The position numbers and the translations under genes are program-made. Below the pieces are notes generated by a model that saw nothing but the letters and a program-made list of their open reading frames with translations, had not been told where the DNA came from and made no database searches. 64,000 bases of DNA, from NCBI GenBank assembly GCA_001662655.1, contig KV460249.1. The stretch is one strand, 5' to 3'. The DNA is from Pseudogymnoascus verrucosus (Eukaryota). Positions 1-29,376 of this stretch are shown in pieces. Each line of letters opens with the position of its first letter. The first letter of the stretch is position 1.

Positions 1-3000
1 CCGTTTAGACAAGAACCTAGGGGAGCAAATCACACCTCGAGTAAGGCCACGATGTAGTTAAAATATAAGCTTGTGGAATACGACGCGCAAGACGAACAGC
101 AGGAGAACACTTAGGGACCTAAACCCTAGGAACTACGAGCAGACTAAGCTGCTATGGACTACGAACCCACCGATAGAGACGTAGAAAGGTTACGTGTAAC
201 CATGGAGAAATCTGAGCTCACGGGCAAGACAAAGGAGGAACAGGAATTGACAAAGTTAGATGCATCAAGGATTGATCACCCCTAGCACCCATATATATTC
301 TAGGAACACTGCAAGTACGATGACTATGAGAGTCACCTACGGAAAAAGACCTAGTATCGACTATTTCTGAAAATCGCACCTTAGGTCTACTTTACGGATA
401 TAGACCAAATTCATGCCCTTAGACGAAGTCAGTCTAAAGGAGAACTACCGTTAAAGAAACAACAACAGGTATACGAGAAATACCTGCACCTACTAGATGA
501 AGCAGAAGGATGGGGAGGACAATCTTCCTAAGGACCGCCCATAGAGGATGATGAACATCACTATTACTCCTTAGACAAGTCAAAAAACTAAGAGTCCTTG
601 ACGGTAGGCCACCGGCGAGTGACAAAGAGAGGCCTAGTACGAAGTAGCTGTGCGCCACGGGAGGCAGCATGCAGCTATATGTGGTCGCTAAGATACAACA
701 GCGACACCTCCGAGCCATGATTGACTTAGGAGCAACGGGCAACTTTATGACGAAGAAAGTAGCAGACGCTTAAGGTTTCAAAACGCAAATGAAAACCGAC
801 CCTTACCCACTCATAGTCGTGGATGGAGAGCCCATCTCGACTAACAAGGGGATAGTGACCTACGAGACGGTCCCATTAGAAATGGTCATGCTACGCGGAC
901 ACAAGGAAACGATCTAATTTGACATTGTACACATAGACAACCATGCATGTATCCTTAGTGTGCCGTAGCTTAAGAAACACAACCCCTAGATCGACTAGTA
1001 GAACGAGAAAGTTGTAATGAGCCAGTGCGCGTGTAAACAACGAACGGACACGCTACAACGGGAGAAACCATCCTAGGGCCGACGCGAGGTGTGTGCGACC
1101 TCTACAGAGCCTAGTGACCTAGCCTAGGCACCCTCACTAACGAGTATACTAGTGGAGTATAAGGAATACAAGCAGCTATTCTAGGAAGGCCCTAAGAACG
1201 AGGCGCTTCCTAAGCACCAACTATAGGATCATGTGATACCCTTAGAAGAAGGAAAGAGTCCACCGTTCGGACCAATATACTAGATGTCAGCAGATGAGCT
1301 AAAACTGCTAAAGGAATACATTAACGATAACCTTAAGAAAGGATTTATTAGACCATCTAAATCTCCTACAGGAAGCCTAATGTTATGGGTTCCTAAGAAG
1401 GATGGGAGCAAACGACCCTACGTGGACTATCGAGCATTGAACAACATAACAATAAAGGATCGATACGCCTTACCGTTAATCAATGAGTTACACGATAGAT
1501 TCTAAGGAGCTAAGATCTTCACTAAGCTAGATCTGCGTGGCGCGTACAACCTAATCTAGATAGCCGACGGCGAGGAGTAGAAAACAGCATTCCGCACCCG
1601 CTATAGCCTATTCGAATATCAAGTCATGCCCTTTAGGCTAACTAACGCCCCCGCATCTATGCAACGCTTAATGAATGACGCTTTGCATGAATATCTAGAC
1701 ATATTCACCATCGTTTACTTAGACGATATACTAGTATACTTAGCAAACAAGGACGAACATGCTCGGCATGTTAAGCTCGTCCTCTAGAAGCTAAAGGAAT
1801 ACAATCTACTATTAAAGCCAGAGAAGTGCGAGTTCCATAAGAACTAAGTCGAATTCTTAGGTTACATTATCAGAACGCACGGCATCAAGATAGACTAAGC
1901 AAAGGTTACGGCAGTGTTAGAATGGCCAACACCAACCACGGTTAAAGAAGTACAAGCCTTCCTAGGCTTTACCAACTTCTACCGTCAGTTCATTACGGGA
2001 TATTCCAAGGTAGCTCAACCACTTACAGAGCTCACTAGGAAGGATCTCGTGTTCAAATGGACAGACAAAGCGGAGACTGCCTTCTAGGAACTTAAGACGA
2101 AGTTCACAGAGGCACCTATCCTTGCAACATTTAACCCTACAAAGAAGATCGTCCTTGAGACAGACGCTTCTAACTTCGCAATTAGAGCATGTCTAAATCA
2201 GCTAGGCGAGAACGGTAAGTTCAAACCAATCGCGTACTACTCTAGGAAACTGTCACCCGCGGAGCTCAACTATAACATCCACAACAAGGAGCTACTAGCT
2301 ATTGTCGTTGCCTTTGAGCAGTGGCGCGTATATCTTAAGGGATCTACCTACACTGTGCAAGTGTAGACAGATTACAAGAACCTCATATACTTCACTACGA
2401 CTAAGGTTTTGAACTGCAGACAAGTCCGCTAGGCAGAAACCCTCGCAGCCTACAACTTCACGATAACCTATCGCAAAGGCTCTGAGAATGCAAGAGCAGA
2501 CGCTCTCTCTAGAAGGACCGACTACATCGGCCTAAAGGAAGAAAGACCTAGAGTAATATTAAAGAAGACAGACGTAGGAATGCAATACAACGAACTACTA
2601 GCCACGATCGCCATCGTGGAAGACACGGAACTTGAGCAGAGACTCAAGAACGCTTACGCAACAGACGAAATAGCGAAGCGAACCCTAAACAAAGTCGAAG
2701 GAAACTTCTCCATTAACGAACAAGGGCTAATCCGATTCAAAGGATTAGTGTATGTCCTAAGTCAAATGAGACGCCTGCTAGTGCAAGAACAACACTCGTT
2801 GCTAGCACACGGTCATTAGGGAGTAACACGAACCTTCGAACGAATCGCACGACACTACTACTTCCTAGGTCTAAGGAAGTAGGTAGAAACAATTGTGTTA
2901 GGATGCGACATTTACTAGAAGTCAAAAGCAAATAGACACGCACCATATAGACTTTTAAAGTCCCTACCAACACTAAAACGAGCATAGTCCTCGATAGCAA

Positions 3001-3996
3001 TTGACTTCATTGTCAAGTTGCCATCATCAAAAGAACCAATGACAGGATTTGTTGCAGACTCCATTATGGTCTCTAACTACAGGCTTACAAAAGAAGCACA
3101 CTTCACGCCGTTTAAAGAAGCGTCAGACGTGAAGGCATTAGCATATATCTTTCTAAAAGTCATTGTCGCAGCGCATAGGCTACTAGACGAGATAATTTCA
3201 GATAGAGATAAGCTCTTCACATCTAAATTCTAGCAGACAATCATAGCGCAGCTCGGAACAAACCACAAGCTGTCCACAGCTTTTCATCCACAAACGGATG
3301 GACAAACAGAACGAACTAATTAGACGTTAGAGGCGTATCTACAAAGCTACGTTAATGCTAAATAGGACAACTAGGTCTAGTACCTACATTTAGCAGAGTT
3401 CGCATATAATTCGTCACTATTAGAGGTAACAAAAGTCTCACCATTCTTCACTAACAACGGATGGCAACTAGAGGCGTATAAGACGCCAAGACTAGATAAA
3501 TTTCGCTCTAAGGAAGGAACGTTAGAAGTATCAAAGATACTTTCCTTCTAGAAACAACTGGCGACGGACATCTAGTTCTTAAATGAACGATCCGCTACAT
3601 ACGCAAACAGGAAGCGCAGTATAGAACCTGCCTTTAAGGAGGGGGATAAAGTATACCTACTCCGGAAACACATCAAAACGAAACGACCAAGCACGAAGTT
3701 AGACTTTAAGAAGTTAGGACCATTTAAGATATTAGAGAAAGTCAGCTTAGTTAATTACAAGCTGTAGCTACCTAAGAACTCCAAACTCCATCTAGTGTTT
3801 CATGTCTCATTATTAGAACTAGTAAGAGGGGATGCCCCGATTGCGACAGATACTGAACTTCAACCCGAAAATGAGATCATTGAATATAAGGTCGAGGCGA
3901 TCCTAGACAAAAGGTTAGTAGGACGCCAAGAAGAGTTTTTGATAAAATGGAAAGGTTACGAACCTACAGACAACTCATAGGAGTCGAGGGGAAACC

Positions 3997-4551
3997 TTAG
4001 CTACCTAGAGTTGCTAGCGGAGTTCCACCGTTAACACCCTAACGATTGAAGAACCTAGGGGAAAGGGCCGACAGGTAGTCGTGCTTAGGGACGGCGCTCC
4101 TAGGGTTAGTTACGGAAGGACTAGCGAGGTGACCGTAGGCTTTAGCTTCTTACCGCTCACGTTCTTCCACCTCCTCTAGTTCGTTAAGGGTCTTTAGACC
4201 GCGGCGAAGCATCTTAGCACCTCGGGTCTTGAGGAGATCCTGCTGCTGCTTGAGGCGGTTGAGACGGGCCATAGCAGTTGCCACGGCCTCGCGAGTCATG
4301 TAAGTTTCGAGTCGAAGACAGTCCTCTTCTTTCTATAGCGACTGCTAGTCACTAGCAGAGGGACTAGAGACATCACAATTGTAGGAATTCGAACGAACAC
4401 ATTCATTACATCGTTTTGAGGATGCAGAAGCGAGGCAGCAGAGACCTCGTTTCTCGCAGCGGGAACAGGAAGGCATTTCAACCCCTTCGCGGGTTATGCG
4501 GTTAGCGAGCAGTTTACGTTCTTTGATTTTTAAGTGTTTAGAGGAAGACAT
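3997..4551 (-). pseudogene. Antisense accessory ORF of the Gypsy element: Cys6 zinc-cluster-like domain plus coiled coil (~184 codons, with RIP stops)
   Basis: ATG at 4551 gives MSSSKHLKIKERKLLANRITREGVEMPSCSRCEKRGLCCLASASSKRCNECVRSNSYNC. The same frame continues past RIP-type stops into AMARLNRLKQQQDLLKTRGAKMLRRGLKTLNELEEVEERER and ends at TAA 3999-3997. Confidence 0.75.
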
Positions 4552-4664
4552 GGTCGTGGCCTTGCCCACCCCACGAATATAGGGGACCCACTACGCTTAA
4601 GTAGGCTAGTGGATCCTTAGTTAGCAATGGCCTACGGGACTAGGCCTCGAGGGAGGGGACCTAG

Positions 4665-5126
4665 TGTTATGGCTAAAACATGCAACCCATATGCTGCAAG
4701 ATAGAATAATAAGGTAAAATAGCTTGCGGCTAATTAGCAGCAGGAAATGGACGCAGAGATTGTAGGTAGCTTAGTTAAGGAGGGCACCTTTAGGAAAAGG
4801 TACCTTTCTTAGAAGGTACCTAGCAAAGGAAAGGTGCCTATTAGGAAAGGCACCCATGCAGAGCAAGGTGCCTCCTTAGAAGGGCACCTATGGGAATCGG
4901 TACCTGCAATAAGTGTGGCACCTCTTATAGGACGCACACGTGATTGGATTAGTAGGAATAGTNNNNNNNNNNNNNNNNNNNNNNNNNNNNNNNNNNNNNN
5001 NNNNNNNNNNNNNNNNNNNNNNNNNNNNNNNNNNNNNNNNNNNNNNNNNNNNNNNNNNNNNNNNNNNNNNNNNNNNNNNNNNNNNGAAACCTCTATGAGT
5101 CTTATAGGTTAAGACCTAGCGTTACA
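4665..5126 (+). repeat. 3' LTR of copy A (interrupted by an assembly gap at 4963-5085)
   Basis: Starts TGTTATGGCTAAAAC just after the PPT and ends CCTAGCGTTACA. Matches the LTRs at 8857-9385 and 10244-10772. Confidence 0.93.
4963..5085. other. Assembly gap (N run)
   Basis: Run of N inside the LTR. The spanned LTR is ~67 bp shorter than the 529-bp intact copies, so the gap size is only an estimate. Confidence 1.
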
Positions 5127-8100
5127 AGTTGGTCCTTCTGCTAAGAGCATCTGCTCTTGCATTCTTAGAGCCCTTATAATAAGTTATTGTAAAGTTGTAG
5201 GCTATAAGGGTTTCTACCTAGTAGACTTGTCTATAGTTCAAAACTTTAGTCGTAGTAAAGTATATAAGATTCTTATGATCTGTCTACACTTGTATAGTGT
5301 AGGTAGATCCCTTAAGATATACTTGCTACTACTTAAAGGCAACGACAATAGCTAGCAGCTCCTTGTTGTAGATGTTATAATTAAGCTCTATAGGTAACAG
5401 TTTCCTAAAGTAGTATGTAATTAGTTTAAACTTACCGTTCTCGTCTAGCTAATTTAGACATGCTCTAATCGCAAAGTCTAAAGAGTCCGTCTTAAGGATA
5501 ATCTTCCTTATAGGGTTAAATGTAGTAAGGATAGGTGCTTCTGTAAACTTCGTCTTAAGCTCCTAGAAGGCAGCCTCTACTTTATCTATCCATTTAAACG
5601 CAAGGTCTTTCCTAGTAAGCTCTATAAGCAGTTAAGCTACCTTAGAATATCCTGTAATAAACTAACGGTAGAAGTTAGTAAAGCCTAGGAAGGCTTGTAC
5701 TTCTTTAACTATAGTTAGTATTAGCTATTCTAACACTACTATAACCTTTGCTTAGTCTATCTTAATGCTGTGCGTTCTAATAATGTAACCTAAGAATTCA
5801 ACTTAGTTCTTATAAAACTTGCATTTCTCTAGCTTTAATAGTAGGTTGTATTCCTTTAGCTTCTAGAGGACGAGCTTAACATGCTAAGCATGTTTGTCCT
5901 TGCTTGCTAAGTATACTAGTATATTATCTAAGTAAACGATTGTAAATATGTCTAGATATTTATACAAAGCATTATTCATTAAGCGTTGTATAGATGTAGG
6001 GGCGTTAGTTAGCCTAAAGGGCATAACTTAATATTTAAATAGACTATAGTAGGTGTAGAATGCCGTTTTCTACTCCTTGCCGTTAGCTATTTAGATTAGG
6101 TTGTACGTGCTATGTAGATCTAGCTTAGTAAAGATCTTAGCTCCTTAGAATCTATCGTGTAACTCATTAATTAACGGTAAGGCGTACTAATCCTTTATCG
6201 TTATATTGTTTAATGCTCGATAGTCTACGCATAGTCGTTTGCTCCCATCCTTCTTAGGAACCTATAACATTAGGCTTCCTATAAGGGATTTAGATAGTCT
6301 AATAAATCCCTTCTTAAGATTATCATTAATATACTCCTTTAGCAGTTTTAGTTCGTCTGCTAACATCTAGTATATTAGTCTAAACAGTAGACTCTTTCCT
6401 TCTTCTAAGGGTATTACATAATCCTATAGTTAGTGCTTAGGGAGCGCCTTGTTCTTAGGGCCTTCCTAGAATAGATGCTTGTATTCCTTATACTCTACTA
6501 GTATACTTGTTAGTAAGGGTGCCTAGGCTAGGTCACTAGGCTCTATAGAGGTCGCATACACCTTACGTTAGCCCTAAGAGGGTTTCTCCTATTATAGCGT
6601 GTCCGTTTGTTGTTTATACACGCACTAGCTCATTATAATTTTCTTATTCTACTAGTTAATCTAGGGGTTGTGTTTCCTAAGCCACAGTACACTAAGGATA
6701 CATGTATAATTGTCTATGTATATAATGTCGAATTAGATCGTTTCCTTATGTCTACGTAGCATAACCATTTCTAATGGGACCGTCTTATAGGTTACTATTC
6801 CCTTATTAGTTGAGATAGGCTCTCTATCTACAACCATTAACGGGTAGGGGTTAGTTTTCAATTGCATCTTAAAACCTTAGGTGTCTGCTACTTTCCTTGT
6901 TATAAAGTTGCCTATTGCTCCTAAGTTAATTATTGCTTAGAGGTGTTGCTATTGTACCTTAGCAACTATATATAGCTATATGCTGCCCTCTATAGCGCAT
7001 AGCTGTTCCTTACTAGGCCTCTTATTGTCGCTTGTTAGTAGCCTACCGTTAAGGACTCCTAGTTTTTTGACTTTAATTGTCTAGTGGATCGTTGCTTCGT
7101 AAGGATCCCCTTCATTAATTCCTAGTTGTAGTATACTAGTCTTTGTCTAGTAGGGAAGTAGGCATAGTCCGTCTTCTTAAGGTAGTGCTATAAGCAGTCC
7201 TAAGTATAACACTATAACTATAGTACAAATTTGTACTAGGGGTAATTAGTCCTAGATGCGTCTTGTGTCTATAGTTTGTCCCCTTCCTTGTTAGTAGTAG
7301 CTCTGTTAAAACGGTAGCTGTTTGCAGCCTAGATTTCTATAGGCTATAGACCTTTATAGTTATCCCCTAGCTCTAGCTACTCTAATACCTACAGTAGGCT
7401 TTCTTAGTGGTCTTCGTAGACCTCCTTGTTAAGGTAGTATATATTAATGATTTTTCCTCTAGCAATAGCGTCCTAGACGTTATACTTACGAAGTTTATAC
7501 TTAAGCCATCCTATAGCTTCTTGTTCTATGTAGTTTGCTCTATGTAGTTCCTACTAGGTAGGGTATCTAAGTTAGCATCTCATTTTACAGACTATAACCT
7601 CCTAGTCTTATGTAGTACCCTACTACATTGCTAGTAGCCTAGGTATAGGAATTCCTTCGTTAGTGACGTTTTAGAGCACTGTCTCTTTGTAGACTTCTAC
7701 TACTCCTGCTACTTGTTCCTTAAAGAGGGTCTTTTACACGCTTTCTTTAAAGGCGCTTATCCTACGTTCCTAAGAACTAGTAAAGACCTCTTTAACAGCT
7801 AACGAATCGTTGCTATTGTCTTCTCCATTTAATGTATCGAATTCCTCGAGGTCCTAGGTAGTAACTTCCTAGACCTCTTTTCCTTTAGACGTAGCAGCTA
7901 GTTGTCCTTACTAAGTGGCATTAATTTGCTTACTATACTTCTGTCCTCCGTTCCCTTTCTTTAACTACTTGCAATCCCTAGCTATATAGCTAGGCTTGTT
8001 ACAATTAAAGTAGAGTCGTTCCTTAAGCTGTTGCTCCTTATTAGGATTATAGGGCTAGTTGCCTTGTTTAAAGGTAGCGTTGAGTTCTATTAGCTAAGGC

Positions 8101-9385
8101 TAATAGCTTCTCTGCTTTAGTCTCTTCTAGACCTAAGTAGGTTTCTATCCTCCCTTCTTAAGTCGACGCTTGTAGTGGCGATTGTTAATTAATGTAGTAG
8201 CGAGGATTAATTTCTCTAAATCGTCTAGACAGACACTACGAGCAATCTTGTCCTTAATAGAGTCCTTTAAGCTGTTATAGTACCTTGCTTATAAGGCATC
8301 GTCGTTCTAATTAGTTCGTCCTATGTACTGCTAGAATTCGGCAGTGTAGGACGTAACTAATCCTATGTGTTAGATTTTTAGCAGGTGTCGTTCCACTGTT
8401 CTCTTAGCGTCTAAGTTGCTAAACACCTTAGTAATCTAGGTCTTAAACCCCTTCTAGGTCCTAAAGATTTCTCTAGTAGTAACTGCTATGTTAGTGTAGA
8501 GTTGTCCCTTAAGTCCTTTCTTCTCTAAGTACTTATTAACGAAGAACTTAACCTAGTTAAAGGCAGCCCCTCTTAAAAGGGCTATAGCCTAAAGGACTTA
8601 GTTAGCTTCATTCTTAAGTATATAAGCATTAAATCTAATGTATAAGTTGCACTTAAGGAGAAAAGCCTTAAGCTTGTGTCGTTCTCTACTATAGGGCTTA
8701 GGCATCTAAACCTTAACGACTTGTTTATAGGCTAGGGCTGTTTCTATAGCAGTAGAGACTACTAGGGAAGCTGTAGGTTCTAGGGACTTGCTCTTTCTAA
8801 CGGAAGACATGTTGCTTTATGTATAAGCTAGTAACTTGTAGAAGTGGTGCTTAAAGTGTAACGCTAGGTCTTAACTATAAGACTTATAGAGGTTTTATTG
8901 CGTTAGTTTACTTAATAGAGGAGGCAGGGGATTAGACACAAAGGCTTTTATAAAACACGTTATAGTATATAATAGAATACTATATTAAGTTAAGCATGAA
9001 GCTCCTATCTAAGAACTATCTATCTACTTATATAGTAGCGTCGTGCTAAAGGGAATAGTTAGAATAGCAGACTCTCTAACTATTCCTACTATTCCTACTA
9101 ATCTAATTACGTGTGTGTCCTATAAGAGGTGCTATACTTATTATAGGCACCGATTCCCATAGGTGCCTTTCTAAGGAGGCACCTTGCTCTATATAGGTAC
9201 CTTTCCTAATAGGCACCTCTCCTTTGCTAGGTACCTTCTAAGAAAGGTACCTTTCCCTAGAGGTGCCCTTATTAACTAAGCTACCTATAGTCTCTGCGTC
9301 CATTTCCTACTGCTAATTAGCCGCAAGCTATTTTACCTTATTATTCCATCTTGCGGCATATAGGTTGCATATCTTAGCTGTAACA
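5127..9385 (-). mobile_element. Ty3/Gypsy copy B of the same family: 5' LTR, gag, PR, RT, RNase H; truncated after RNase H; heavily RIP-mutated
   Basis: The reverse complement aligns with copy A from ~577 to ~2523. Gag ATG at 8810. Decayed CCHC knuckle YFNCNKPSYIARDC at ~7970-8010. Sequence stops abruptly at the copy A LTR end. Confidence 0.95.
8857..9385 (-). repeat. 5' LTR of copy B (529 bp)
   Basis: TG...CA termini. Reverse complement of 10244-10772 apart from transitions. Confidence 0.95.
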
Positions 9386-10243
9386 GCTACCTTTAAACCC
9401 CCTATGTAGGTGTCGAGGAAGGAAACTATAAAAGGGTTAATAGAAAGGTTGTGCTAAAAAGGGCGTTTAGTTGAATAAATGGCTCTGAAATTAGCATGTG
9501 TATAATGATTAAGGGAAAGGGATTAAGGGCTAAGTCTTTAAGACATACTTAATGCTCTATCTAAGGCTATGTAGGGCGTTAGAATTTATAGAGGGCCTAC
9601 AATCTAGGAGTGAGCCATTTAGCTGTTTACAACACATATAGTGCTAATATTAGCTAATGAGTTAAAAGAACTAATGCCTATAGATGTCATCATTCTTATT
9701 TCTATACATTAGTCTTGCATAGCTCTTAGCCTTACTATAGCGAATTGTTTATAAGTGTATTAAAGAGAAGTAGGCATCGTCTATACCCCTACTAGACAGT
9801 ATAAATGCAGACAGATTCCTAGCATTATATAAGTGTAACTTACATTCTCATTTAAGTTTCTTTAGATCGAAGATTGTTTTACCTTATAGCTTTTCTACAA
9901 CATAAACAAGTGTTTTTAACAAACTTAGCAGAAACTGTAGAAAACTCTCTAAGAGTGAGTCATAAAGAGGTTCTAATATCAAAATTTCAGCTAACTGTTA
10001 AAGAACTCAGTTGTGTCAACAATGTGTTAAAATCCACAACGAGCATCTTTACTTAGCTTAAATCAAGATCATTACCTACAAGAAGAGATAATATCTAACG
10101 ACAATATCGACCTTAGCGTTGTAGCGGTAAGTCTTAACAACAGTAGCACTACTAGTTTCTAAGATTAATCGTTATTAGGAAAATGCAAAATATCCTATAG
10201 TAACGCTACTACAAAGTTAGTATCTTCCTAGTTTTCGCTATAC
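9386..10243. repeat. Unidentified AT-rich, RIP-like degenerate sequence between two LTRs
   Basis: TpA-rich with stops in all frames. No recognisable motif. Confidence 0.35.
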
Positions 10244-10772
10244 TGTTACGGCTAAGACATGCAACCTATATGCTGCAAGATGGAATAATAAGGTAAAATA
10301 GCTTGTAGCTAATTAGCAGTAGGAAATGGACGTAGAGACTGTAAGTAGCTTAGTTAATGAGGGCACCTCTAGGGAAAGGTACCTTTCTTAGAAGGTACCT
10401 AGCAAAGGAGAGGTGCCTATTAGGAAAGGCACCTATGTAGAGCAAGGTGCCTCCTTAGAAAGGCACCTATGGGAATCGGTGCCTACAATAAGTGTAGTAC
10501 CTCTTATAGGACACACACGTAATTAGATTAGTAGGAATAGTAGGAATAGTTAGAGAGTCTACTATTCTAACTATTCCCTTTAGCACAACGCTACTATATA
10601 AGTAGATGGATAGTTCTTAGATAGGAGCTTCGTGCTCAACTTAATATAGTATTCTATTATATACTATAACGTGTTTTACAAAAGCCTTTGTGTCTAATCC
10701 CCTGCCTCCTCTGTTAAGTAAACTAATGCAACGAAACCTCTATGAGTCTTATAGTTAAGACCTAGCGTTACA
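10244..10772 (+). repeat. Solo LTR (529 bp) of the same Gypsy family, no target-site duplication
   Basis: TGTTACGG...GCGTTACA. Flanks TATAC and TGAGA do not match. TATATAA at 10595. Confidence 0.95.
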
Positions 10773-10773
10773 T

Positions 10774-10896
10774 GAGATTAAAGGAGCAAGGGAAAGGGGT
10801 GAACTAAAAAGGGTCAGTGTGCTTATAGAACTAGTAGTGAGGAAAGATAGTGCGACTACGGGAGGCTAGGACGAGGATAAGGAGTTCGAGTTGTAA
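10774..10896 (+). pseudogene. 3'-terminal fragment of a paralog of the 18586-20505 hypothetical gene
   Basis: Translates to EIKGARERGELKRVSVLIELVVRKDSATTGG*DEDKEFEL*, similar to EIRRAKVRGIGIGAVNVLVQPVMMEKGGSQCGGDGEEDEFEL* of the intact gene. Confidence 0.7.
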
Positions 10897-10959
10897 ATTT
10901 GTACAATAAGTGTAACACAATAGAAATACTTTCTTAGAAAAAGCTACTATGGCTTGTAA

Positions 10960-13900
10960 GTGCTACACAGGTCAGCTTTGCTCAACCCTAGATAACCGCC
11001 CCACGTTCCGATTCCGTGTGATTCCGCGTTGCCGATTAGTAGGCTTTCTTAGACATGTCTAATAGACGACCCTTTCCATTTGCTAACCCGCTTGCATTTC
11101 ACATTCCACTTAGGATATCTGCTGGTGATTCTACAGCATAGTCATGAAGAATGACAGCACCATTGTCCTCGTCATACAACCCGATACAACCGGCAACAAG
11201 TTAGGCAGTTGGGCAGATCGGACCATCATGTCATAGTCACGCTAGTCGGTAAATATATAAAAAGCAAGTGCATCATCCACAGGTTCGCGAGAGATATCAC
11301 GTGCTAAGGCTTTCTACTAGGTAGCGATGAGAGCATTTAAATAGTCATAGGCTTTGTTTAGTTGTAGACAAACTCAACAGTTTTTGCAAGATAATAATAA
11401 TTAGGAGACATTTGGAATCTCAAATATTAAAGATATAAACCGTGTCGATGGTGTGTGTGATTTAAATAACTGATTTAACTAGTTAATACTTCACTACATC
11501 CGTCACGATAGTAGTGAATTTTTACATCTAAAGCCACTAAGTTAAGATGCTGTGTTCGTACGTGCTTACGGAGGATATTAATGCGTTTAAAAACCTTATC
11601 CTTCTTTGCTAGCCTAGCCTCCTCGTTAGACTTATAGAGATCACATGTTAAATCTAGCCCTTAGATCTACTAAACACTTACAATCGTCTCGTTTTTGTAC
11701 AGCTTCTAGACATTAGAGAGATGTTCCGACTGTTTCTTCTCTAACTTTAGCCCCTTATACTTACGAGGGCATTCTTGTCGGTTGCAAATTAGCGCTAGGT
11801 TATTGACGAAAGTGATCCGCACTTTAATGACCTGATCCTCATCTAAATCATTAAGTGACATGCCTAGCATTTTAACAATTACAGCTCGCTCCTTAAGTTT
11901 GTACTTCTTTAGAGGGGAGGTAAGAGCATTAGTAGGGTAGATTCCCTACATTTGTCAATTGACCTCATTAGTGTAGACGTTTATATGAAATTCTTTAATA
12001 GTCTTCTTAAGTAATGCGTCGCTTAATTAACGTCTTAAATTGTTTATATTAGCTTAAGCCTCTTTATGCTGCTCGAATAACTTCGTTCCCTAAGCCGCCT
12101 TAATTGTAGTGTAGCCCTTTAGCTTGATCTCTTAGCTATATGTGTTACGTAACGTAGCTGCCTTAACGATGTCTAGATGATTTTTAATCTTAAGCTTCTG
12201 CTCATCTATAAGGGATGAAGGGCATCTCCTATGACGAGCTAGCTGGCTAACTCTTTGTATAAGATCGTCTCGTCGTAGTGTGCCTAGATAGATGCCTTAG
12301 CAGTCTTTGTCGACAAAGTCTAGTATGTAGTACCGCTTGTAAACATTCCTACTATTGCCTATAATATGTCTGCGTTCCTTAGGGGTTAGTGCGTCTATAA
12401 CAGCATATATTAGCAAATAGGACAGTAAATACTACTAGAAGAATAGATAAAAAGGATTAATATCATACTATTCAGCTCCTTCCTAGAACCTCGCTATAGG
12501 CTATAGAGCTTAAGCGCCTTCTTATATCCCATCACCTAACCGAGGCAAACAAAGTAATATCGATACTTTGCATACTAGAAAGATTTAGTCTTAGAAATAT
12601 AGACTCCATTAGTAGTGACCTCGACGTCGCGGAAGACAGGTCGTTCTGCCCATTCGTCGTCCCATTTAAGTGTTATGTAGTCGGCGTCTAGAGGGACAAC
12701 TAGATTGTAGATATCCCTTAAAGATTTGAATTCGTTTTTAAACGCGTTATTAGCAAGAGCAAGTGCTAGCATAAAGCTGACTGCACAGCATAATAGGTCT
12801 TCCCCTTCATAGAATGTAAACTTCTTCCTGTTTAAATCAGTAAATTGCAGAAGCAATGTAGCTTGGCTACTGCACATAGGTACCACTTACTTCTTAGATT
12901 TCCCTCTAGACCTTTTAATGTGCTTGAGGTTTAAAGTCATGACGATTATTAGCCGTTTCCCTTTAACCATAGAAGGGAAGAGATGGAATGTGATATCTAA
13001 ATAGAGTAGAGGACGCTTCCTAACAAGAGCTTTAGGCCTCGAGCTTATGCAGCCACTAAAATCTATAAGTAACGATTCTTGTACCCGGAGTCGTTCATAG
13101 GGATATAACTCTGTATCATTTACCTAGTTGCTATGTTGTAGATTGCATAGATCATCAACAAACAGCGCGTACTTCTCCTTTTCGGACGTATTAAGTTCGA
13201 GATATTGCAGGATCTACTGTTTCAAAGTCAGTATCGTCTAGCTCAGTACTAAGAGGGGCAACTTACGTTACGAATATCAAATAAAATGTCGTCAGTCATA
13301 TATCTCTGTGCTACTTGTGCATATAACATGCTTAGAGTCTTCTAGTATGTCATAATGGAGGATTCTTTCGTTATGCGTGAGTTTTCATATCGCTAGCAGA
13401 GGTATGCCTTAAAAATAGGTGCTTCGCCCTTAGCAAGGGCCTCTAATGGATTATTACTAAGTACGAAATCGAGATCTTCATCCTTAGGAGCGACTTCTTT
13501 CTCAGCCTTTAATTTCGCCCAAAACCTATTAAGCAAGGGTTAGCAAAGATGTCTAAATGCGCACAGCTAACTAGTAATGAAGACTTACAGCGCCTAAAAC
13601 TTCTCTGCCCTCGCTATTATAATCTTTGTATCGTCACCGTGATTTGATAGGTTGACACCTGCTTTACTAAAATCTGCTATCTTTCGCTAGTAGGACACGG
13701 TTTCAGATTCACTTTCAGACTGGGAATTGTAGCCAGAATCTAGGCGCAGCTCATTGCCAGCATGTAGAGATGCTAATTGCTTGCGGCGATGCATGTTTTT
13801 CTTTTTAATCCGCGGTTCATTGAGTCGCCGTTGTTCCTCCACGTTTACTGGCACTGCAGAAGGAACTCCACCTCGGCCATTATGAAGCCCCACACGTTGG

Positions 13901-14506
13901 GCGTGGCGTCGAGGAAGTTGCGGGGGTAGATTGGCCATAAAGAGAGTGTATATTGCAAAAGGTGGCAGTGTATGAGATCAACAGCTATGGTGTTCAGGCT
14001 GGGAAATTGCGCTCGACGTTGATATTCCAAGAAGCGTGTATTCCTTTGGATCTGCAATATCGCCTGTAACAACCTGATTCTCTAGCTGTGTTGGCTGTAG
14101 AATAGTTATGGATGATGAAAGAGTGAAAGGTAAAGACAGTAGAGCGAAATAAACCACAAGGCTGCTTGAAAGCACCGAGCCGACGATAGAGCGAGTGATT
14201 TAAGGACATGTAAAGAGAGTAAAGAGTGTTAGGGCGAGATGGCAGGATTATATACATTTTCTGTCCAGCAGGTCACGAAGTAGGTTGCGTGGGTTACTTT
14301 GCCTTGTTATTTTTACCTTGAAAATGGCCCTCACATTTCGGGGGGCAACCTATTTCGCGATGGTGATTGTAGTTGTCCTTAAGGCGGCAAGCCAAATTTA
14401 TGTTAGCGTGGAGTTAGCGTAGGTAACCGAGCGGAGAGGCCGCGTAAAGCAGCGGGCAAATGCTGCTATAAACAGCTGCTAAATCGCCAACATGTAGTGT
14501 ATAGTA
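10960..14506 (-). mobile_element. Candidate minimal DUF3435/Starship-like element bounded by TTAC direct repeats
   Basis: Minus-strand TTAC at 14510-14507 upstream of the captain, and TTAC-aagccat-A at 10959-10948 downstream. Short CTACA/TGTAG inverted core just inside both ends. Confidence 0.4.
11480..13938 (-). pseudogene. DUF3435 tyrosine recombinase (Starship captain-like), RIP-inactivated, intron-containing
   Basis: Motifs SGCISSRPKALV (~13040), KFTFYEGEDLLCCAVSFMLALALANNAF, LKWDDEWAERPVFR, LYSL*RG (~12495), ALTPKERRHIIGN..YKRYY..FVDKDC (~12310-12395), LICNRQE, and a C-terminal FKRINILRKHVRTQH zinc-finger-like tail. The 3' end is approximate. Confidence 0.85.
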
Positions 14507-14909
14507 GTAATGAGTATATAGAAGTTCCTTACACTATAAAAAAATTAACAAAAATGAAAGGTAATAGGCAACAGGCAGTAGATGAAGTCTTAAGAGGGTG
14601 CAAACAACAACAGGGTATACGGATCTTTTGCCCTTTATTTAATCTTACTCTTTATCCATTTATTCCCCCCATTTCCCCAATTTCCTATTCCAGCATAGTC
14701 CCATCCAATTCTCCATCATCCCAAAACGTGGCCGCAACAACAATTCCCCGATCCAACCAATAATTCCTCCCTCGCTTCTCCCAGCTTCCACAGACAGCTC
14801 TCCCCAACCACGCAACCGTAGCTCCCTTCCAACTCGAGCAGCAACGCAACGCACGCGGCGCTGTCACACTACGAATCCACGCAATTGAGGTTTCGTGAAG
14901 TTCGACATC

Positions 14910-16376
14910 ATGGCTGCTGTAATCCAAGGTCTCTTCGGAGGGTCAAAGGACGACCAGCCCAAGGTCGTGGCGGATAATGGTGCGTCTCCCAATCTCAATC
15001 CAAATCCCAATCCATTCATTCGCCCCCTTCTCCCCCCTTCTCCCTCCCCCAATCCTCACACCTCCCCAACGCCCCAATCCACCACCACCACAACCACCTC
15101 TCTAACCCCTCTCCCAGACTTCGCAGACTTCGCCTCCGCCCCCGAACCAACCCCCGCCTCCTTCGCCGCCCCCGCCGGCACCACCCCCCTCGCCGCGACC
15201 GCCACACCCGCCCTCCCCTACACAAAATGGTACAACATCCACGAGCGGCACTCCCTCTCCGAGTTCAAGGGCGAAGGCTACATCCTGCTCCTCCTCCTCG
15301 CGCTGGGTACAATCCACATCCTCGGCACACGCGCGAACCGCCGCCGTGCTCGCGGATGGGCCGTTGCGCACGCGCCAGTCTTGCATAATGAGTTTGCGCT
15401 TGTGGGGTTTGCGCCACAGCAGCCGGGGGCGGGGGATGCGGAGGGGGAGGGACTTGCGAGGGCGATTGAGAAGGCGGGGAAGGATGGGGAGGTGTTGAAG
15501 GAGGTTGGACTCAGCAATTTCCTCGGATACGCTACTGGGCGACTTAATGTTGCCTTCCTCGACATTGAAATCGACCTCCTCAAGCGGTACAACCCGGTTC
15601 TTCAGTTCATCGAGAACGCAGCGGGGTTCTTCTTCGAATCCATGCCAGCCCCTGTGGAGCGCGTGTCGGCGATCCTCTACCCCTTCGATGGGAAAGAGGC
15701 CTTGACTGTCCCCGGCCTCCCTGGTATGGCGGAGCTGAAGGGCGGGAAGAGCGGGTACGACAATTTCGTCTGGGCCGTCGTGCATAAAGATCGCATGCGC
15801 CAGCTGCGCGACGAGAGATACGACGTCAGTATCACTGTCACCAAGGACCACCCTAGACTCCCGGAGTGGGCGACTGTCATGTCCGAGAGCGCTGAGATCA
15901 CCGAGGCGATGCTTACACCCGCTCTTGTGGCTGCGGTGGAGAAGGCGGGGGAGGCGTTCGAGCATTTGATTATCACTGACCAGCCCACCGACCAGCCTCT
16001 CAGCGTTGACGAGACTGTGTCGAAGAAGCGAGTCTACCTCTCCCTCCGCCTTCCCGCCTCAGGGGATTACGAGGAGACGCTGCCGATCTTCACGTATTTC
16101 ATCCAGCTTGCTGACTTTTTGGTTGAGAAAGCGCATTTCAGACCGGAGGTTATGAAGAAGGTGAAGGGAGGGAGGGAGGATGTGGTGAAGAGGTTGGTGA
16201 AGGCGGATACGGATGGGAAGGCGGAGGAGAGGGCGCTGGAGAGGGAGAAGGCGAAGAAGGCGAAGAGGGATAAGGAACTAGCAGGCTTGGATGCGAAGGC
16301 GCAGAAGAAGTTTTTGGAGAAGGAGAAGGAGAGGGAGATGAAGAGGAGTATGAAGAAGGGGAGTCAGAAGGGTTAG
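14910..16376 (+). CDS. PAT complex subunit CCDC47-like / DUF1682 ER membrane protein
   Basis: Single TM segment, YATGRLNVAF, FVWAVVHK and a Lys/Glu-rich coiled-coil tail. In-frame 138-nt intron at 14980-15117 (GTGCGT..CTAAC..CAG). Confidence 0.88.
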   Translation: MAAVIQGLFGGSKDDQPKVVADNGASPNLNPNPNPFIRPLLPPSPSPNPHTSPTPQSTTTTTTSLTPLPDFADFASAPEPTPASFAAPAGTTPLAATATPALPYTKWYNIHERHSLSEFKGEGYILLLLLALGTIHILGTRANRRRARGWAVAHAPVLHNEFALVGFAPQQPGAGDAEGEGLARAIEKAGKDGEVLKEVGLSNFLGYATGRLNVAFLDIEIDLLKRYNPVLQFIENAAGFFFESMPAPVERVSAILYPFDGKEALTVPGLPGMAELKGGKSGYDNFVWAVVHKDRMRQLRDERYDVSITVTKDHPRLPEWATVMSESAEITEAMLTPALVAAVEKAGEAFEHLIITDQPTDQPLSVDETVSKKRVYLSLRLPASGDYEETLPIFTYFIQLADFLVEKAHFRPEVMKKVKGGREDVVKRLVKADTDGKAEERALEREKAKKAKRDKELAGLDAKAQKKFLEKEKEREMKRSMKKGSQKG

Positions 16377-16724
16377 GTGTGGGATAGGATGGGATATAAT
16401 GTGTACTTTGTAGATATTATGTGCTTTTTTGTGGCGGGGATGGGAGGTAGGGGGGTGGTGAGGTGGGGATTCGTTAAAATTATTTTATTTCGTAGCTGTA
16501 TTACATTTGTGCTTGTCTCCCAATACCTTTAAACTGACTCCGCTGCGTTGTTGGCCTGAGAAGCTCTCATGTAAAAGCAGAATCCCCCAAAAAGAGGCGC
16601 GCACGATCTCGAGCATAACTTCCCACACCCTTGATTTACTACCAAAGCATTCTAGTTGTTTGCCCAATATCCACTTTTCCTACAAAAAAAACATAAAAAA
16701 ATAAATGCCGAAGCAATCAAACAC

Positions 16725-16796
16725 TGGAGAAACGGCGAATCGAACGCCGGACCTCTTCTATGCTAAAGAAGCGTTATACCACTAAACCATATCCCC
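16725..16796 (-). tRNA. tRNA-Ala (anticodon AGC), intronless
   Basis: GGGGATATGGTTTAGTGGTATAACGCTTCTTTAGCATAGAAGAGGTCCGGCGTTCGATTCGCCGTTTCTCCA folds as a cloverleaf with the G3:U70 alanine determinant and a TTCGA T-loop. Downstream T-run. Confidence 0.96.
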
Positions 16797-18585
16797 TTTG
16801 ATGTGTTGTCACCCACCGCCCTTTTTACTATTGTTACTTACTCATTGTTACTGTTACTGTTACTTAACCGCGGTCGAAGATGGGATGTTTTGGGAAAACT
16901 ACTAATATCTCGAGAAGGAGAGTGGGAGGGAGAGGGAGACAAGTATGAAGAAGTGGGGGGGGCCGGGGGGGGGATGGCAGAAGGGGTAGGTGTGGGATGG
17001 GGATGCGATGTAATGTGTACTTTCTTTTTGGTAGATATGATGGCTTTTTTGCTATGGTGGGGGATGATGGGGAAGGCCGGGGTGGTTTAGGGGGGGATGA
17101 GCTAGAATTATTTTTATTCGTAGTTGTAATAATTACATTGTGCTTGTCTCCTTATGCGTGTGGACTGGTTCTGCTATGTGGACCTCAGAGGGCTCCCATG
17201 TGGAAGTAGAAGCACTAGGGAAGGGGGGGAGCGAGCAGGGAGCGAGAGCGTTAACTTCCCACGCCCTTTGCTATGGTGCGCTAAGCAGCACTACTATTTC
17301 GCTCGGTGGTTCAACATCATCCCGGAACCCGCGATGGAGTAGAGGAGTTTCGTACGTGGAATGGCTTGCTGGGCTACGGCGTAAGTAGAGGCTGTGATGT
17401 AGTCCTGTGGAATTCCATGGGTTGGTTTGCGCGTAGGGACGGAGGTACTCTGCAGTGGGAAGGTGCGATGGTGGTGGTGATGGGGATGATGCGGAGATAA
17501 GAGAGCTTAGAGATACACGGTATGGGTGGAGTTGTTTGCTGTGTTCCAATCCTGTGCCTTGTCGTCGTTAATACGCTGGAATCGTCGGTGTTGGAAGGTT
17601 AAGAAGTTACGCTCAGGCTTGCGAAAATGATGAGTTGGAACGGAATAAGCTACCTAGTATAATCGGCGTTGTGAGAGAGCTGGAAAAAGATGATTACGAG
17701 CTAAGAAGCTCTTGGTATGGAATTTTGATAGGAGAGGCTTCCTTCTGTAGATGATTAAACAACTAAATACTCATATATACCATATGTGATTGTTAGAGTT
17801 AAGTATGAAACTTCTTTATTTTACGAGCTGCGAAAGATGAGTAGTGCTTCGTTAGATTTGAAATGGAATTTACAGTTCGCCTCGCAAAATCGTTTTGCTT
17901 CGGGCCGCAACCTAACATCCGAAAATACAACAAAGCCGATGGGCCAGTACCCCTAATACAATAATCGTTAGGGCTTTAGATGTGGCATATACAGTACTAT
18001 CACACAGCAAGAACATTGACTTATCTAGCCGCCCATTCCTGCAATAATCTCTAAACTTTAAGCTTCTTCCGAGCTCCTATCAGTCTGCAACTACAAGTGT
18101 GAATAAAATTTGTCGTAAATATAATTTCCTAATTAGGCATAGTACATTACCTTTTCCCAAATGCGCATTGGCCTCTACATAGTAAAGTGAAAACGCCTTG
18201 CGAGTTTCGCGCTAGTGCATTTCTGGTATATATCTTGCTGCGCATCGCCCTTTAAGGCGGAATACGCGCGTACTGTTTATTGCGTGCGGAGGAGTAGTAA
18301 GCAGAGGCGAATGGAGAGGGTTTGAAATTGAAATTATCTGTAACAATCTAGGTGTAAATATACTACATATATATATATTAATAGAAGTGGGATTTTAGAG
18401 AGTGCCAATCGATTAGATAGTTGTACTTAACAAGCTTTCTAAAAGCGATATGTCCCGACCTCACAATCAAACGAGAAGTTGCATTTGCAAAAGCGACAGG
18501 TCGCCAAGACATCACATTATAGCTATACACCCTGTCACAGCTCATTTTGCTTTCTATTCCTACCCATTACTATCATATATCCCCT

Positions 18586-20505
18586 TTATAACTCAAACTC
18601 ATCCTCCTCCCCATCCCCACCGCACTGCGACCCACCCTTCTCCATCATCACTGGCTGGACCAGAACATTCACCGCTCCTATCCCTATCCCTCTCACCTTC
18701 GCCCTGCGTATCTCGTCCTTAAACGTCCCCTTCATTATCTCCCACACATCCTCGCGCCCAGCCTCAACGTCGGCATCGATTTCCAGGGGCCCTAGCCTCA
18801 GCACCAGCTTGACCATCGTGATGTCCGCTGGCCGGCACCGCAGCTTCTCCGCTAGGTCACCGAGGAACTCGTCTAGGGGCTTGGTACCGAAGCGTCCCGC
18901 TTCCCAGAAGGTCTGGCGCGTGATGCCGTCGGTGTGCTGGAGGATGTGGAAGGGGATTGGGAGGGGAGCCTTGGCGGGCGGCGCGGTTGGGGTGACTGAG
19001 TGCTTTGTTGGTGGGGGTGGGTGTTGTGCCGGAGGTAGTTGCTTTGTCGGCGGAGGCGAGGGCTTAAGTCTGGAATCCTGTGGAATTGGCACATTTAATG
19101 GAGCGGGTGACGGTGAGTGAAGTGGTGGAGATGGTGATGGGGATGGGGAAATATCCCTAGAGGCGACAAGAGGCGTGGGTAAATATGGGGACAAATATGG
19201 CGGTGCGGCAGGGGACTGGTGCTTCTGAGGATGTAGCGAATCTTTTTTGGACTGCGCTTGATCTTTATCTAGTTCCGTAGTCTTCATTATAGTTGGCGGA
19301 CCAGTTGGATGCTGCTTTTTCAGGACAACCTGTGCCCGGGATTTGCTGCTAGCATTGCTGCTCTGGGAGGTTGGGACGGGGCTCTCCGACTGATCGTCGG
19401 CAATGTACTCATTGACATTGGCGCTGGGAACGGTTCCTGAGATGACACGAGGTACAGGTTTGCGGTCGGAGACCCGACGGGGAGAGCCAAAATCGCTGCG
19501 TATGCTTTCTGAAGACTTGCCGTTAGAAATCTTTGGGCGTTTGAGGGCGCGATCATCACCTCGCATTGGTACTTTCGGTGATGAACCAGGAGTTGATTGA
19601 GAGGGGCGCTTCGAGGAGGTGCTGCGTGACGTTGTGTCTGATAACGGTTTGCTGGCTAACTTGTTTGGAGATAGGTGAGCCTCATCATAGAGGCGGTTTT
19701 TCCGCCGAGTCGCGCGTGGTGTGGTAGTGGGTTCATCGTCTTGAATGGTATAGACATCATCTCCAACCTCGGTCTCACATGTGGCGGCATACTTTGACGT
19801 GCTTTGAGGCTTGTCGGGCGTGAATTCACGCGTGCTCAGTTCCTCGTCCGATTCCTCTTCACTCTTGTGCCGATCCTTAACTTTAGGAACTATTACCATA
19901 TCTGTAGCAGGACGATTTACAGAACTTTCAATAGAGCTGCAAGTAATTTAGTAGCTTTCTTTGTATCGACGCAAGGAACTTACATGCTAGGGGCTAGATT
20001 CTCTGATGCGTCCCTTGATGATTGACGACCAACGCTATGGCGAAATGGATCTCGCGACTCATTGTTCTTAGGATATTTTGCATTGTTAAAAGCATATTTA
20101 TTCTGTTTCCAGAACAGCTGCTTTAGCAAATCAATTATTCTAGCGGTCGTTAGTTACTTCTACGCATCTGAAGAGGGGTACCTACTTCTCTTCGTCGTCA
20201 GGGAAGCACAGCCTGTCTCCTGGGTTCTCGAGGTGAGGCCAAAATTTCTCTCCAGTTCCGACCCCATGGAGAAAGGTGTTGGCCATTCTCGTTAGATCAT
20301 CTTGTGTACTTTGAAGCTTCCACTGGATCAGATCGGTGCCGGAACGGTTGTCGCTCGTCCTGTAAGTCTTACGCCATTTGTGACTGAAGTCGGTGAAAGC
20401 GTTTTGTTCTTTAGAGTTGCGAAAGCCAAGTGCATCACAGATGTCGCGCAGAGAAGGGACTTTGCTCAGCAACACTGTAGGCTTCCTATTTGCCTTCTTG
20501 CCCAT
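18586..20505 (-). CDS. Hypothetical protein (3 exons; folded N- and C-terminal regions, Ser/Pro-rich disordered middle)
   Basis: The 107-aa ORF from ATG 20505 joins the 437-aa ORF through GT-AG introns at ~20185-20141 and ~19983-19903. Confidence 0.75.
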
Positions 20506-27745: not shown

Positions 27746-27872
27746 TTGGACTATTTCTCCTCTTGTGGTAGAGATGGAAATGATGAGACTACACTCAATA
27801 CCCGATATATTCTCTAATAGGGGGTTAAGGATATAAAGGGGATATATAATTCATCGACGTTTTAGTTTTTAT

Positions 27873-29217
27873 CAGCTAATATCATAAATGGGGCTCTTTT
27901 TAATTCAAAAAATCATAAATAGGCCTCTTTTTATATATAATGTCATAAGTAGGCCTCTTTTTAATACAATATCAGGAATAGGCCTCTTTTTTTCTTATCG
28001 TGCACGTGGCTGATTATTCTGCCAGTTATATAACTATGCATTAGCTGACTTTGTGTTAGGGGTAATTGCGGAATACAGAGGACTTTACGCAAAATCGTAT
28101 GAGGGTCTCTAGTCACCGTAATTACTCTTCTTTAGGCAGCGGAACAGAGGCTCCACAGTAGAATATAGTATATAGGATAATATAATCAATTAAATTACTC
28201 ACTAAACTACAGGCCTACGTACGCTATTTATAGGCCTAGGGGAAACCCCTAAAACCCTAAAGGTTTAGGTTCTTACACCCTAAACCGAAGTAATACACTA
28301 GGCTAAAACCTTAGCTTAGTATATCTTCCTCCCCTTCTTCTTAGTCTTTAATAGTCTTGCATTTTAAGACAAATCTCATTAACTTTAAGGTCTTAGTCTA
28401 GTACGATTGCCCGTTGTCTTGAAGAGTAGCTATAATAGATAGCTTAGCTTCTTTCATTAAAGGGAAAACATCACCTATTACTAGAGTAGACATTATACTA
28501 GTAAGGATATAGTAATATAAGGGTAGGAATACTTAAATATATGTAAAATGTAAGTAGAGGTAGTTAGAGTTTTCACTCGCATAATATGATGTAGGCGGTG
28601 AGCGATAAGAAAAAAAGAGGCCCATTCCTGATATTGTATTAAAAAGAGGCCTACTTATGATATTATATATGTTCCGGCCCAACCACCAACTCTGCTGGTT
28701 GGCCAACTGGCCGGTCAGTTGGCCAACTGGCCGGCCGAACCACCAACTCGAGGTAGCTTCTTGGTGTAATTTCTATATAAAGTTACTTATTCTAAATTTC
28801 TTCTATACAATACTACAATAGTTAATAATTATGATTCCTACGTATATACTGTAATTGTAACTACTCCTATGCTATTTAGAAGTAAAAAAGTCATAGTTAT
28901 GACTATATTTCATTAGGTGGTAGAAGGTACTTCTAAAAGCTGCCTTTAACCTACTAATTTATGTAGAAATGAGTGTGTATAGTAAGTACCTTTGGAATAA
29001 GTAACTTTATATAGAAAGTACACCAAGAAGCTACCTCGAGTTGGTGGTTGGGCCGGCCGAACCGCCAACCTAAAAGTTGGTGGTTCGGCCGGCCAGTTGG
29101 CCAACTGACCGGCCAGTTGGCCAACCAGAATAGTTGGTGGTTCGGCCGGAACATATATAAAAAGAGGCCTATTTATGATTTTTGAATTAAAAAGAGGCCC
29201 ATTTATGATGTTAGCTG
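27873..29217. mobile_element. Non-autonomous TIR element (Mutator-like MITE), ~128-bp TIRs with four AGGCC(T)CTTTTT-like subrepeats
   Basis: 27873-28000 is the reverse complement of 28603-28670 plus 29153-29217. The 9-bp flanks AGTTTTTAT and ATTTTTTAT match at 8/9. Interior is AT-rich and RIP-like. Confidence 0.85.
28671..29152. mobile_element. 482-bp MITE/foldback element inserted in the right TIR of the outer element
   Basis: GTTCCGGCC...GGCCGGAAC ends and ~125-160-bp TIRs built from GGCCAACTGGCC and AACCACCAACT units. ATATAT is duplicated relative to the uninterrupted left TIR. Confidence 0.9.
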
Positions 29218-29376
29218 ATTTTTTATTTAAGAATGAAGCTTATATGTGTATTTCGGTTCTAAGCGTATCCTTCTATACAGATTGTATTGTACTAACACCT
29301 AGTTGCAATAGCTCCAAAGTCTATATACCGCTGCTACTTATTAAGATAAACACCTTTTTATATATATAACACACCT

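Follow-up and report, generated by a model that had tools for sequence, protein, structure and literature searches.

The 64,000-nucleotide stretch of Pseudogymnoascus verrucosus DNA considered here (contig KV460249.1; in our coordinates G000:C44:124001-188000, from an assembly of 30.2 Mb in 151 contigs), referred to below as the window, very probably contains, from 14511 down to 10773, the 5' head of a derelict Starship of the Serenity family (family 4). A captain, its position as the first gene, a sharp 5' boundary shared with other copies and cargo downstream of the captain were all observed, which places the element in the Starship superfamily. A sequence-only reading of the same DNA had proposed a cargo-less mini-Starship of about 3.55 kb and had named the head of a larger decayed Starship as its alternative; it is the alternative that has been borne out, with the first cargo gene beside the captain and, on contig C26, a sister copy that carries cargo over 21 kb or more. 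Contigs C26, C1, C24, C10, C46 and C61 all belong to the same assembly, and the proteins encoded in the window have their nearest named relatives in Pseudogymnoascus, a Leotiomycete genus. For comparison with other isolates, the junction region was partly present in 20 of 23 runs, and X3, X4, X6 and X16 were compared as contigs. The features of the head and of the adjoining host gene are as follows.

10773..10896, plus strand: last 40 codons and stop codon of the first cargo gene, the rest of which is missing from the contig (338-amino-acid relatives, no Pfam family)
10897..11426, no strand: spacer between the facing 3' ends of captain and first cargo gene, unbroken in one X4 contig
11427..13938, minus strand: captain, a DUF3435 tyrosine recombinase pseudogene with introns and about 20 premature stops (PF11917 profile, tblastn)
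13939..14505, minus strand: 5' terminal region and captain upstream region, the outer 210-376 bp being common to the heads on C26, C1 and C24
14506..14511, minus strand: 5' direct repeat or target site ATTACT, which fits ATWHCT and whose final CT is common to all four copies (junction alignment; motif from PMC12506042)
14910..16376, plus strand: host gene CCDC47 (PF07946, E 5e-112; intron joint 14978-15117), facing away from the insertion about 400 bp upstream of its start

A search of the genome with the DUF3435 profile (PF11917) gave 19 matches; the captain in the window is matched at 13159-12467 (E 2.5e-30, over the cut-off, with five stops inside) and again at 12386-11868 (E 1.7e-15, seven stops inside). 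Relatives of 756 amino acids, used as tblastn queries, cover 13938 to 11430 and are followed by TAA, so that the captain extends from 13938 to 11427; its four reading-frame blocks contain 21 stops, one of which lies within an intron. Compared with the copy on C26, 201 of the 247 substitutions are transitions, a spectrum of the type left by repeat-induced point mutation (RIP), and the description of this gene as a RIP-decayed DUF3435 captain thus holds. The A or T of these transitions is found on the window side in 130 cases and on the C26 side in 71. Transitions in both copies are expected where RIP has hit both, and the distribution is what one would anticipate if the window and C26 copies were each affected. 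When 13 DUF3435 loci were tested with the closest relative of the captain, a close match was obtained at C44 and C26 only; four others reached 24-28%, apart from 43% over one short segment, and the remainder gave no match. A lone fragment of 131 bp from the 5' coding region of the captain (86%) lies in unmutated-looking DNA at C10:275897-276027, and stop-free DUF3435 matches at C46:252973-253811 and C61:5060-5518 belong to more distant captain families and are possibly intact captains. In Starships the captain is the first gene and usually lies no more than 2 kb from the 5' boundary (PMC11162782); the same arrangement is found here, with the captain as first gene, its start at 13938 and the boundary at 14507.

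This boundary was fixed with a 4.1-kb query, for which similarity stopped at window 14507 and likewise at C26:49970, C1:754860 and C24:13439. Four of four heads end at the same base in unrelated flanks, and a sharp shared boundary of this kind was seen at the 5' end only. Since four loci with different flanks end at 14507, the right boundary is real, and its earlier placement in the CCDC47 upstream region proved correct to within 1-2 bases; the minus-strand TTAC claimed about 570 bp upstream of the recombinase is present at 14507-14510, 569 bp from the captain start. A 20-base terminal pattern occurs at exactly four places in the genome, the four heads, and the reversed control at none. In element orientation the junctions read ATTA/CT in the window, ATAC/CT on C26, ATAT/CT on C1 and AAAG/CT on C24, so that TTAC is present at only one of the four. 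The register of these junctions had been set beforehand by homology, and although they were seen before the motif was known, the motif was not fitted to them. In Sanctuary, according to PMC12506042, the 5' direct repeat is ATWHCT and the 3' repeat ATACCT, and ATWHCT fits three of the present four junctions (ATTACT, ATACCT and ATATCT). With ATWH at a frequency of 0.03-0.08 per position in the four flanks, the chance of at least three fits in four is 0.0001-0.002.

The heads on C1 and C24 are shorter than the other two: C1 keeps 324 bp and C24 about 210 bp up to a long terminal repeat (LTR), with no captain behind either. Along these lines one might regard the four heads as old segmental duplications or products of repeat-driven rearrangement and not as recombinase insertions, a reading to which the missing captains and the LTR of the same family that breaks the C24 head would lend themselves. 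It is nevertheless highly improbable in view of the common terminal base, the target hexamer of a related element at three of four junctions, the unrelated flanks and a related isolate that seems to be without the insertion. The C1 head (C1:754860-755194, L049) has a perfect ATATCT junction and is followed by unmutated genes, including one for a LysM protein; a head of the same 324-bp type is found in run X6 on a 39-kb contig. That the C1 head might be a small non-autonomous element was considered and is not supported, as the 8.4 kb downstream matched an unrelated high-copy repeat or nothing. The C24 head (C24:13229-13439 and 1073-1486), broken by the same LTR family, continues 12 kb off in opposite orientation, which points either to an inversion mediated by LTRs or to a join made in assembly.

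On the left side the situation is different. The sequence-only reading had set the second boundary 60 bp past the 3' end of a gene, at a TTAC-N7-A motif downstream of the captain, and had added a CTACA/TGTAG inverted core. All of these letters are present. TTAC-N7-A (10948-10959) lies within the spacer, 60 bp past the stop codon (10894-10896), and the two halves of the supposed core are CTACA (10963-10967) and TGTAG (14493-14497). The gene ending at 10896 is, however, the element's own first cargo gene, and the motif inside the spacer is not a terminus. Window 10773-10966 aligns with C26:42589-42778 at a score of 196.5, compared with 33.5-39 for control segments; taken by itself, the stretch beyond the stop codon scores weakly (39), but it is collinear. 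At the motif the plus strand reads GTAA in the window and GTGG on C26, that is, two G-to-A changes, with CCAC on the minus strand of C26 in place of TTAC, and the CTACA of the window is CTACC at the homologous place; the supposed core is not supported. TTAC-N7-A occurs on the same strand at 1.38 per kb in window 1-14507, twice within the 658 bp between LTR and captain stop, and the left motif is no more than chance would give. The case illustrates how RIP, together with AT-rich DNA, can mimic a TTAC(N7)A boundary convincingly.

For a cargo-less element of 3.55 kb bounded by TTAC repeats speak the presence of both motifs, the right one at a true end, and the similarity to C26, which breaks left of the captain at 11370 and again near 10966. 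It is contradicted by homology that crosses 10960 in both C26 and X4, by the altered motif on C26, by the frequency of the motif and the single TTAC among four junctions, by the linkage of the adjoining gene to the captain in other genomes, and by the continuity from captain to cargo gene in X4; we consider it extremely unlikely. Multiple copies do exist, as had been supposed; a minimal unit is not supported, a genome search having found no second copy of the 3.55-kb unit ending at 10960. Of the two ends at which copy alignments were predicted to stop, the right one stands (at 14507) and the left one is crossed, an outcome that had been named in advance as refuting the mini-element. If the 3.55-kb element were real, the empty site would read CTCATTAC joined directly to AAGCCATAG, and in an uninserted relative the DNA left of CTCATTACT would run into window 10955 and leftwards. 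In this context it should be noted that the smallest element reported in PMC11162782 measures 15,020 bp, all those below 15 kb having been removed beforehand, so that a true mini-Starship would have been of interest.

The first cargo gene is complete on C26 (41633-42712); its relatives are the 338-residue proteins without a Pfam family. Captain and cargo gene carry consecutive locus tags in P. destructans (VC83_03485 and VC83_03486) and in strain 24MN13 (VE04_05671 and VE04_05670), two of the four named Pseudogymnoascus genomes that hold both. The X4 contig 15 spans 10772-14225 with no gap and 244 differing letters, and the 72 bases of its loose end resemble the C26 cargo gene and not the LTR; the contig may represent the same insertion or another copy, and either way its continuity from captain into cargo gene makes captain, spacer and cargo gene one unit. 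The suggestion that the window has lost the ankyrin gene present on C26 was dropped as unproven: in the X3 and X4 contigs the end of the cargo gene lies within about 1.1 kb of the captain end, and C26 may therefore have gained it.

In the sister copy on C26, the DNA left of the captain holds the ankyrin gene, the first cargo gene, a DUF3723 gene (31.2-33.2 kb, E 2.4e-50) and, at 28.4-29.9 kb, a patatin-like frame that misses the Pfam cut-off (E 1.2e-4); over 27-51 kb the TpA/ApT ratio is close to 1 or higher. What follows the captain as cargo is, in the window, the remnant of the first gene, joined on C26 by genes of the ankyrin, DUF3723 and patatin-like types, of which the latter two are named as some of the most frequent in Starships (bioRxiv 10.64898/2026.05.30.728154). 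Counted from the captain through the patatin-like frame (C26:28400-49970, L043-L045), the C26 element extends over at least 21 kb. Just to its left, at 14.6-24.3 kb, lies a reducing polyketide synthase gene, which may or may not be cargo.

Assignment to a family followed from the relatives of the captain, which is 72-84% identical, with stops counted as differences, to OBT38582.1, OBT54206.1, OAF60512.1 and KFY79510.1 (72-80% for the first two). Five of six relative accessions are present in Table S4 of PMC11162782, all five as fam04, and the 50% cluster of these relatives comprises 13 rows, ten of them fam04 and three unassigned. As fam04 corresponds to Serenity and Hephaestus to family 2 (PMC11162782, Table 1), the captain would belong, judging by its nearest relatives, to family 4 and not to the Hephaestus family. 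The claim of a Hephaestus-type TTAC(N7)A target is accordingly not supported, with fam04 relatives and TTAC at one junction of four.

Among known systems the closest counterpart is Sanctuary from Bipolaris sorokiniana (PMC12506042; family placement PMC12257634), compared here by its published description and motif. It likewise has a family 4 captain first, an ATWHCT 5' repeat (in the present lineage ATTACT, ATACCT and ATATCT), and copies at several loci with a common head and differing cargo. On the other hand, Sanctuary is intact, measures 47-196 kb, belongs to a Dothideomycete and has ATACCT as its defined 3' repeat, in contrast to the RIP-damaged stump in a Leotiomycete for which no 3' end was found. 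The family 4 captains of Pseudogymnoascus, Botrytis and Cadophora (PMC11162782, Tables S3-S4) include the four Pseudogymnoascus accessions with 72-84% identity; two of those genomes have the same first cargo gene beside the captain, and the TE-rich (transposable-element-rich) setting noted for the family recurs here. The entries tabulated there are captain genes without boundaries, unlike the base-fixed 5' end of the window. Hephaestus from Paecilomyces variotii (family 2; PMC10104507) shares with the window element a DUF3435 captain in first position, a short target-derived repeat and vulnerability to RIP, and its mechanism is likely the same in kind; it differs in family and in its TTAC(N7)A target, TTAC being found here at one of four junctions as part of ATTACT. 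For Hephaestus the captain is needed, excision leaves no footprint, and the repeats arise from matching terminus and target (PMC10104507), and a circular intermediate has been reported (bioRxiv 10.64898/2026.09.21.753150). For Serenity too few members were known to expect a direct repeat (PMC12257634), and clean insertion sites are described as hard to find (PMC11162782). A literature search returned no paper on the present element, and ATACCT or ATWHCT only in two papers related to Sanctuary, with most subscription journals outside the search. It seems probable that Serenity-family captains share the ATWHCT target, which does not count as an established feature of the family, across two fungal classes.

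Further information came from the other isolates. Contigs of both X3 and X4 read through the 14507 junction without a single difference; over window 11400-14200 their captains show more than 200 further C>T and G>A changes relative to the window, consistent with RIP going on separately in each lineage. Most of the differences that separate X3 and X4 from the window within the captain are of this kind, and neither run is therefore the source of the window. The 944-base contig 28 of X6 matches 14505-15143 with five differences and carries 280 bases of other sequence left of the match, as an empty site that kept ATTACT would; by these match coordinates it is probably such a site. X16 covers only the CCDC47 exons and is uninformative on the insertion, and the missing cover of X3 at 10966-11417 carries no weight. 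An empty site was also sought in metagenomes by way of CCDC47; the 19 loci obtained were too distant (50-61% identity), with mixed gene order.

Left of the cargo remnant, and on the far side of CCDC47, the following features adjoin.

1..9386, no strand: two nested RIP-damaged Gypsy retrotransposons (C44:119483-133386), outside the Starship's own architecture
9387..10243, no strand: single-copy AT-rich DNA between two LTRs
10244..10772, plus strand: solo Gypsy LTR, TG...CA, high copy, truncating the cargo gene at 10772
18586..20502, minus strand: longer paralogue of the first cargo gene, intact-looking, 42-58% identity, 4 kb outside the 5' end

The solo LTR of about 530 bp is flanked by TATAC and TGAGA, without target-site duplication, and is absent at the same point in X4; the nested Gypsy elements have their duplications, AGTTG and GCTAC. 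This difference points to a recombination between two LTRs. The DNA at 9387-10243 may resume at C44 below 119483, by way of the GCTAC duplication of the Gypsy insertion; window 9387-10242 gave no genome match, nor a Pfam match in the two of six frames scanned. That everything left of 14506 is one large Starship, as had been offered alongside the smaller element, is too simple, with 1-10772 consisting mostly of nested Gypsy DNA and LTRs and the far end unplaced.

A related proposal is that of one long decayed Starship of about 35-75 kb, with its 3' end further left on C44 (about 64-119 kb) and with the Gypsy nest, a presumed hAT element, UstYa, ABC transporter, ankyrin and DUF7703 genes as cargo. 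It is compatible with a Serenity-family head, the sole difference being the extent to which the far end is preserved, and falls just short of an even chance. At C44:64 kb the G+C content falls from some 57% to 41-50%, TpA/ApT exceeds 1.4 over most of C44:84-135 kb, accessory-type genes lie at C44:64-103 kb, and in one of 13 metagenome loci (L106) CCDC47 is surrounded by homologues of the C44:25-48 kb genes. Against such an extension, no cargo of the C26 type (DUF3723, patatin) lies on C44, none of the 18 ATACCT in C44:60-135 kb shares sub-terminal sequence with another copy, and the solo LTR without duplication points to deletion or rearrangement. In C44:1-140 kb, purine/pyrimidine dot plots and tblastn found only a 194-bp piece of C26-type cargo. 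At C44:70-84 kb a Zn-cluster factor, two UstYa-family genes and an ABC transporter adjoin one another, and at C44:103-106 kb a RIP-damaged element with a nested palindrome, which by its look we take to be a hAT transposon, stands next to a split RSN1/PHM7-like gene.

Attempts to find a 3' end took several routes. A 284-bp repeat at C26:26318-26601 was rejected, as it is part of a different repeat family, further copies of which run on past the point at which C26 breaks off. Scanning for the 14-base terminus in inverted form, with at most three mismatches, gave 16 matches, none distinctive; scanning for ATACCT and ATWHCT gave many hexamers, none tied to an end; and among 646 candidate hexamers the top 12 pairs sharing sub-terminal sequence were 11 LTR-LTR pairs and one other repeat.

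Several observations weigh against the Serenity-family head as described. The locus tags of captain and cargo gene are non-consecutive in V499 and V501 (short contigs, the V501 captain being more distant), the C24 junction AAAGCT departs from ATWHCT in two positions, and ACTA/CT, a junction that run X4 alone shows, fits in five of six. No 3' end or shared 3' ATACCT was found between the copies on C44, C26 and C1, the family call consists of the relatives' published cluster labels, and the empty site in X6 rests on match coordinates and so is not proven.

The history of the locus can be rationalized as follows. An intact captain of the lineage would have recombined the element ends with a genomic ATWHCT, here the ATTACT upstream of CCDC47, the crossover presumably occurring, by analogy with known Starships, at the shared CT. 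A second copy would then have drawn RIP, leaving some 20 stops in the captain; Gypsy insertions into the cargo may have followed, and an exchange between two LTRs may then have deleted what lay left of 10773, so that a solo LTR devoid of a duplication stayed behind. Unable to make its own recombinase and with no identified 3' end, this copy is most likely dead and immobile. The locus is thus one of many dead Starships, an ordinary derelict; its four copies fix a 5' end to the base and, with three of the four matching the Sanctuary hexamer, provide for the Serenity family a testable candidate for a family-wide target motif as well as a searchable terminus.

The paralogue at 18586-20502 is the only match of the genome to the first cargo family besides the two cargo copies, and could represent the host gene from which the cargo gene came, what is left of an earlier element, or a chance occurrence; at about 50% identity, any capture would be far older than the present insertion. 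That, in addition to the shared ATWHCT target, the region beside CCDC47 is a repeated landing site, where the lineage once took its conserved first cargo gene from this host paralogue, is an improbable proposition; if true, it would amount to visible evidence of cargo capture by a Starship.

Beyond the element, CCDC47 and a haspin-kinase gene are separated by no more than about 3 kb in six of 13 metagenome loci (stricter cut-off) but by 42 kb in the window. The intervening 16376-58462, with F-box, GDSL, sugar transporter, HET and ankyrin genes and no DUF3435 match in the PF11917 profile search, is possibly an accessory island. A tRNA-Ala(AGC) gene at 16725-16796 (minus strand) is located between the 3' end of CCDC47 and its 71% identical duplicate (16317-16582 and 16912-17211), and window 27866-29219 contains short inverted repeats and a 500-bp palindromic stretch resembling a miniature inverted-repeat transposable element.

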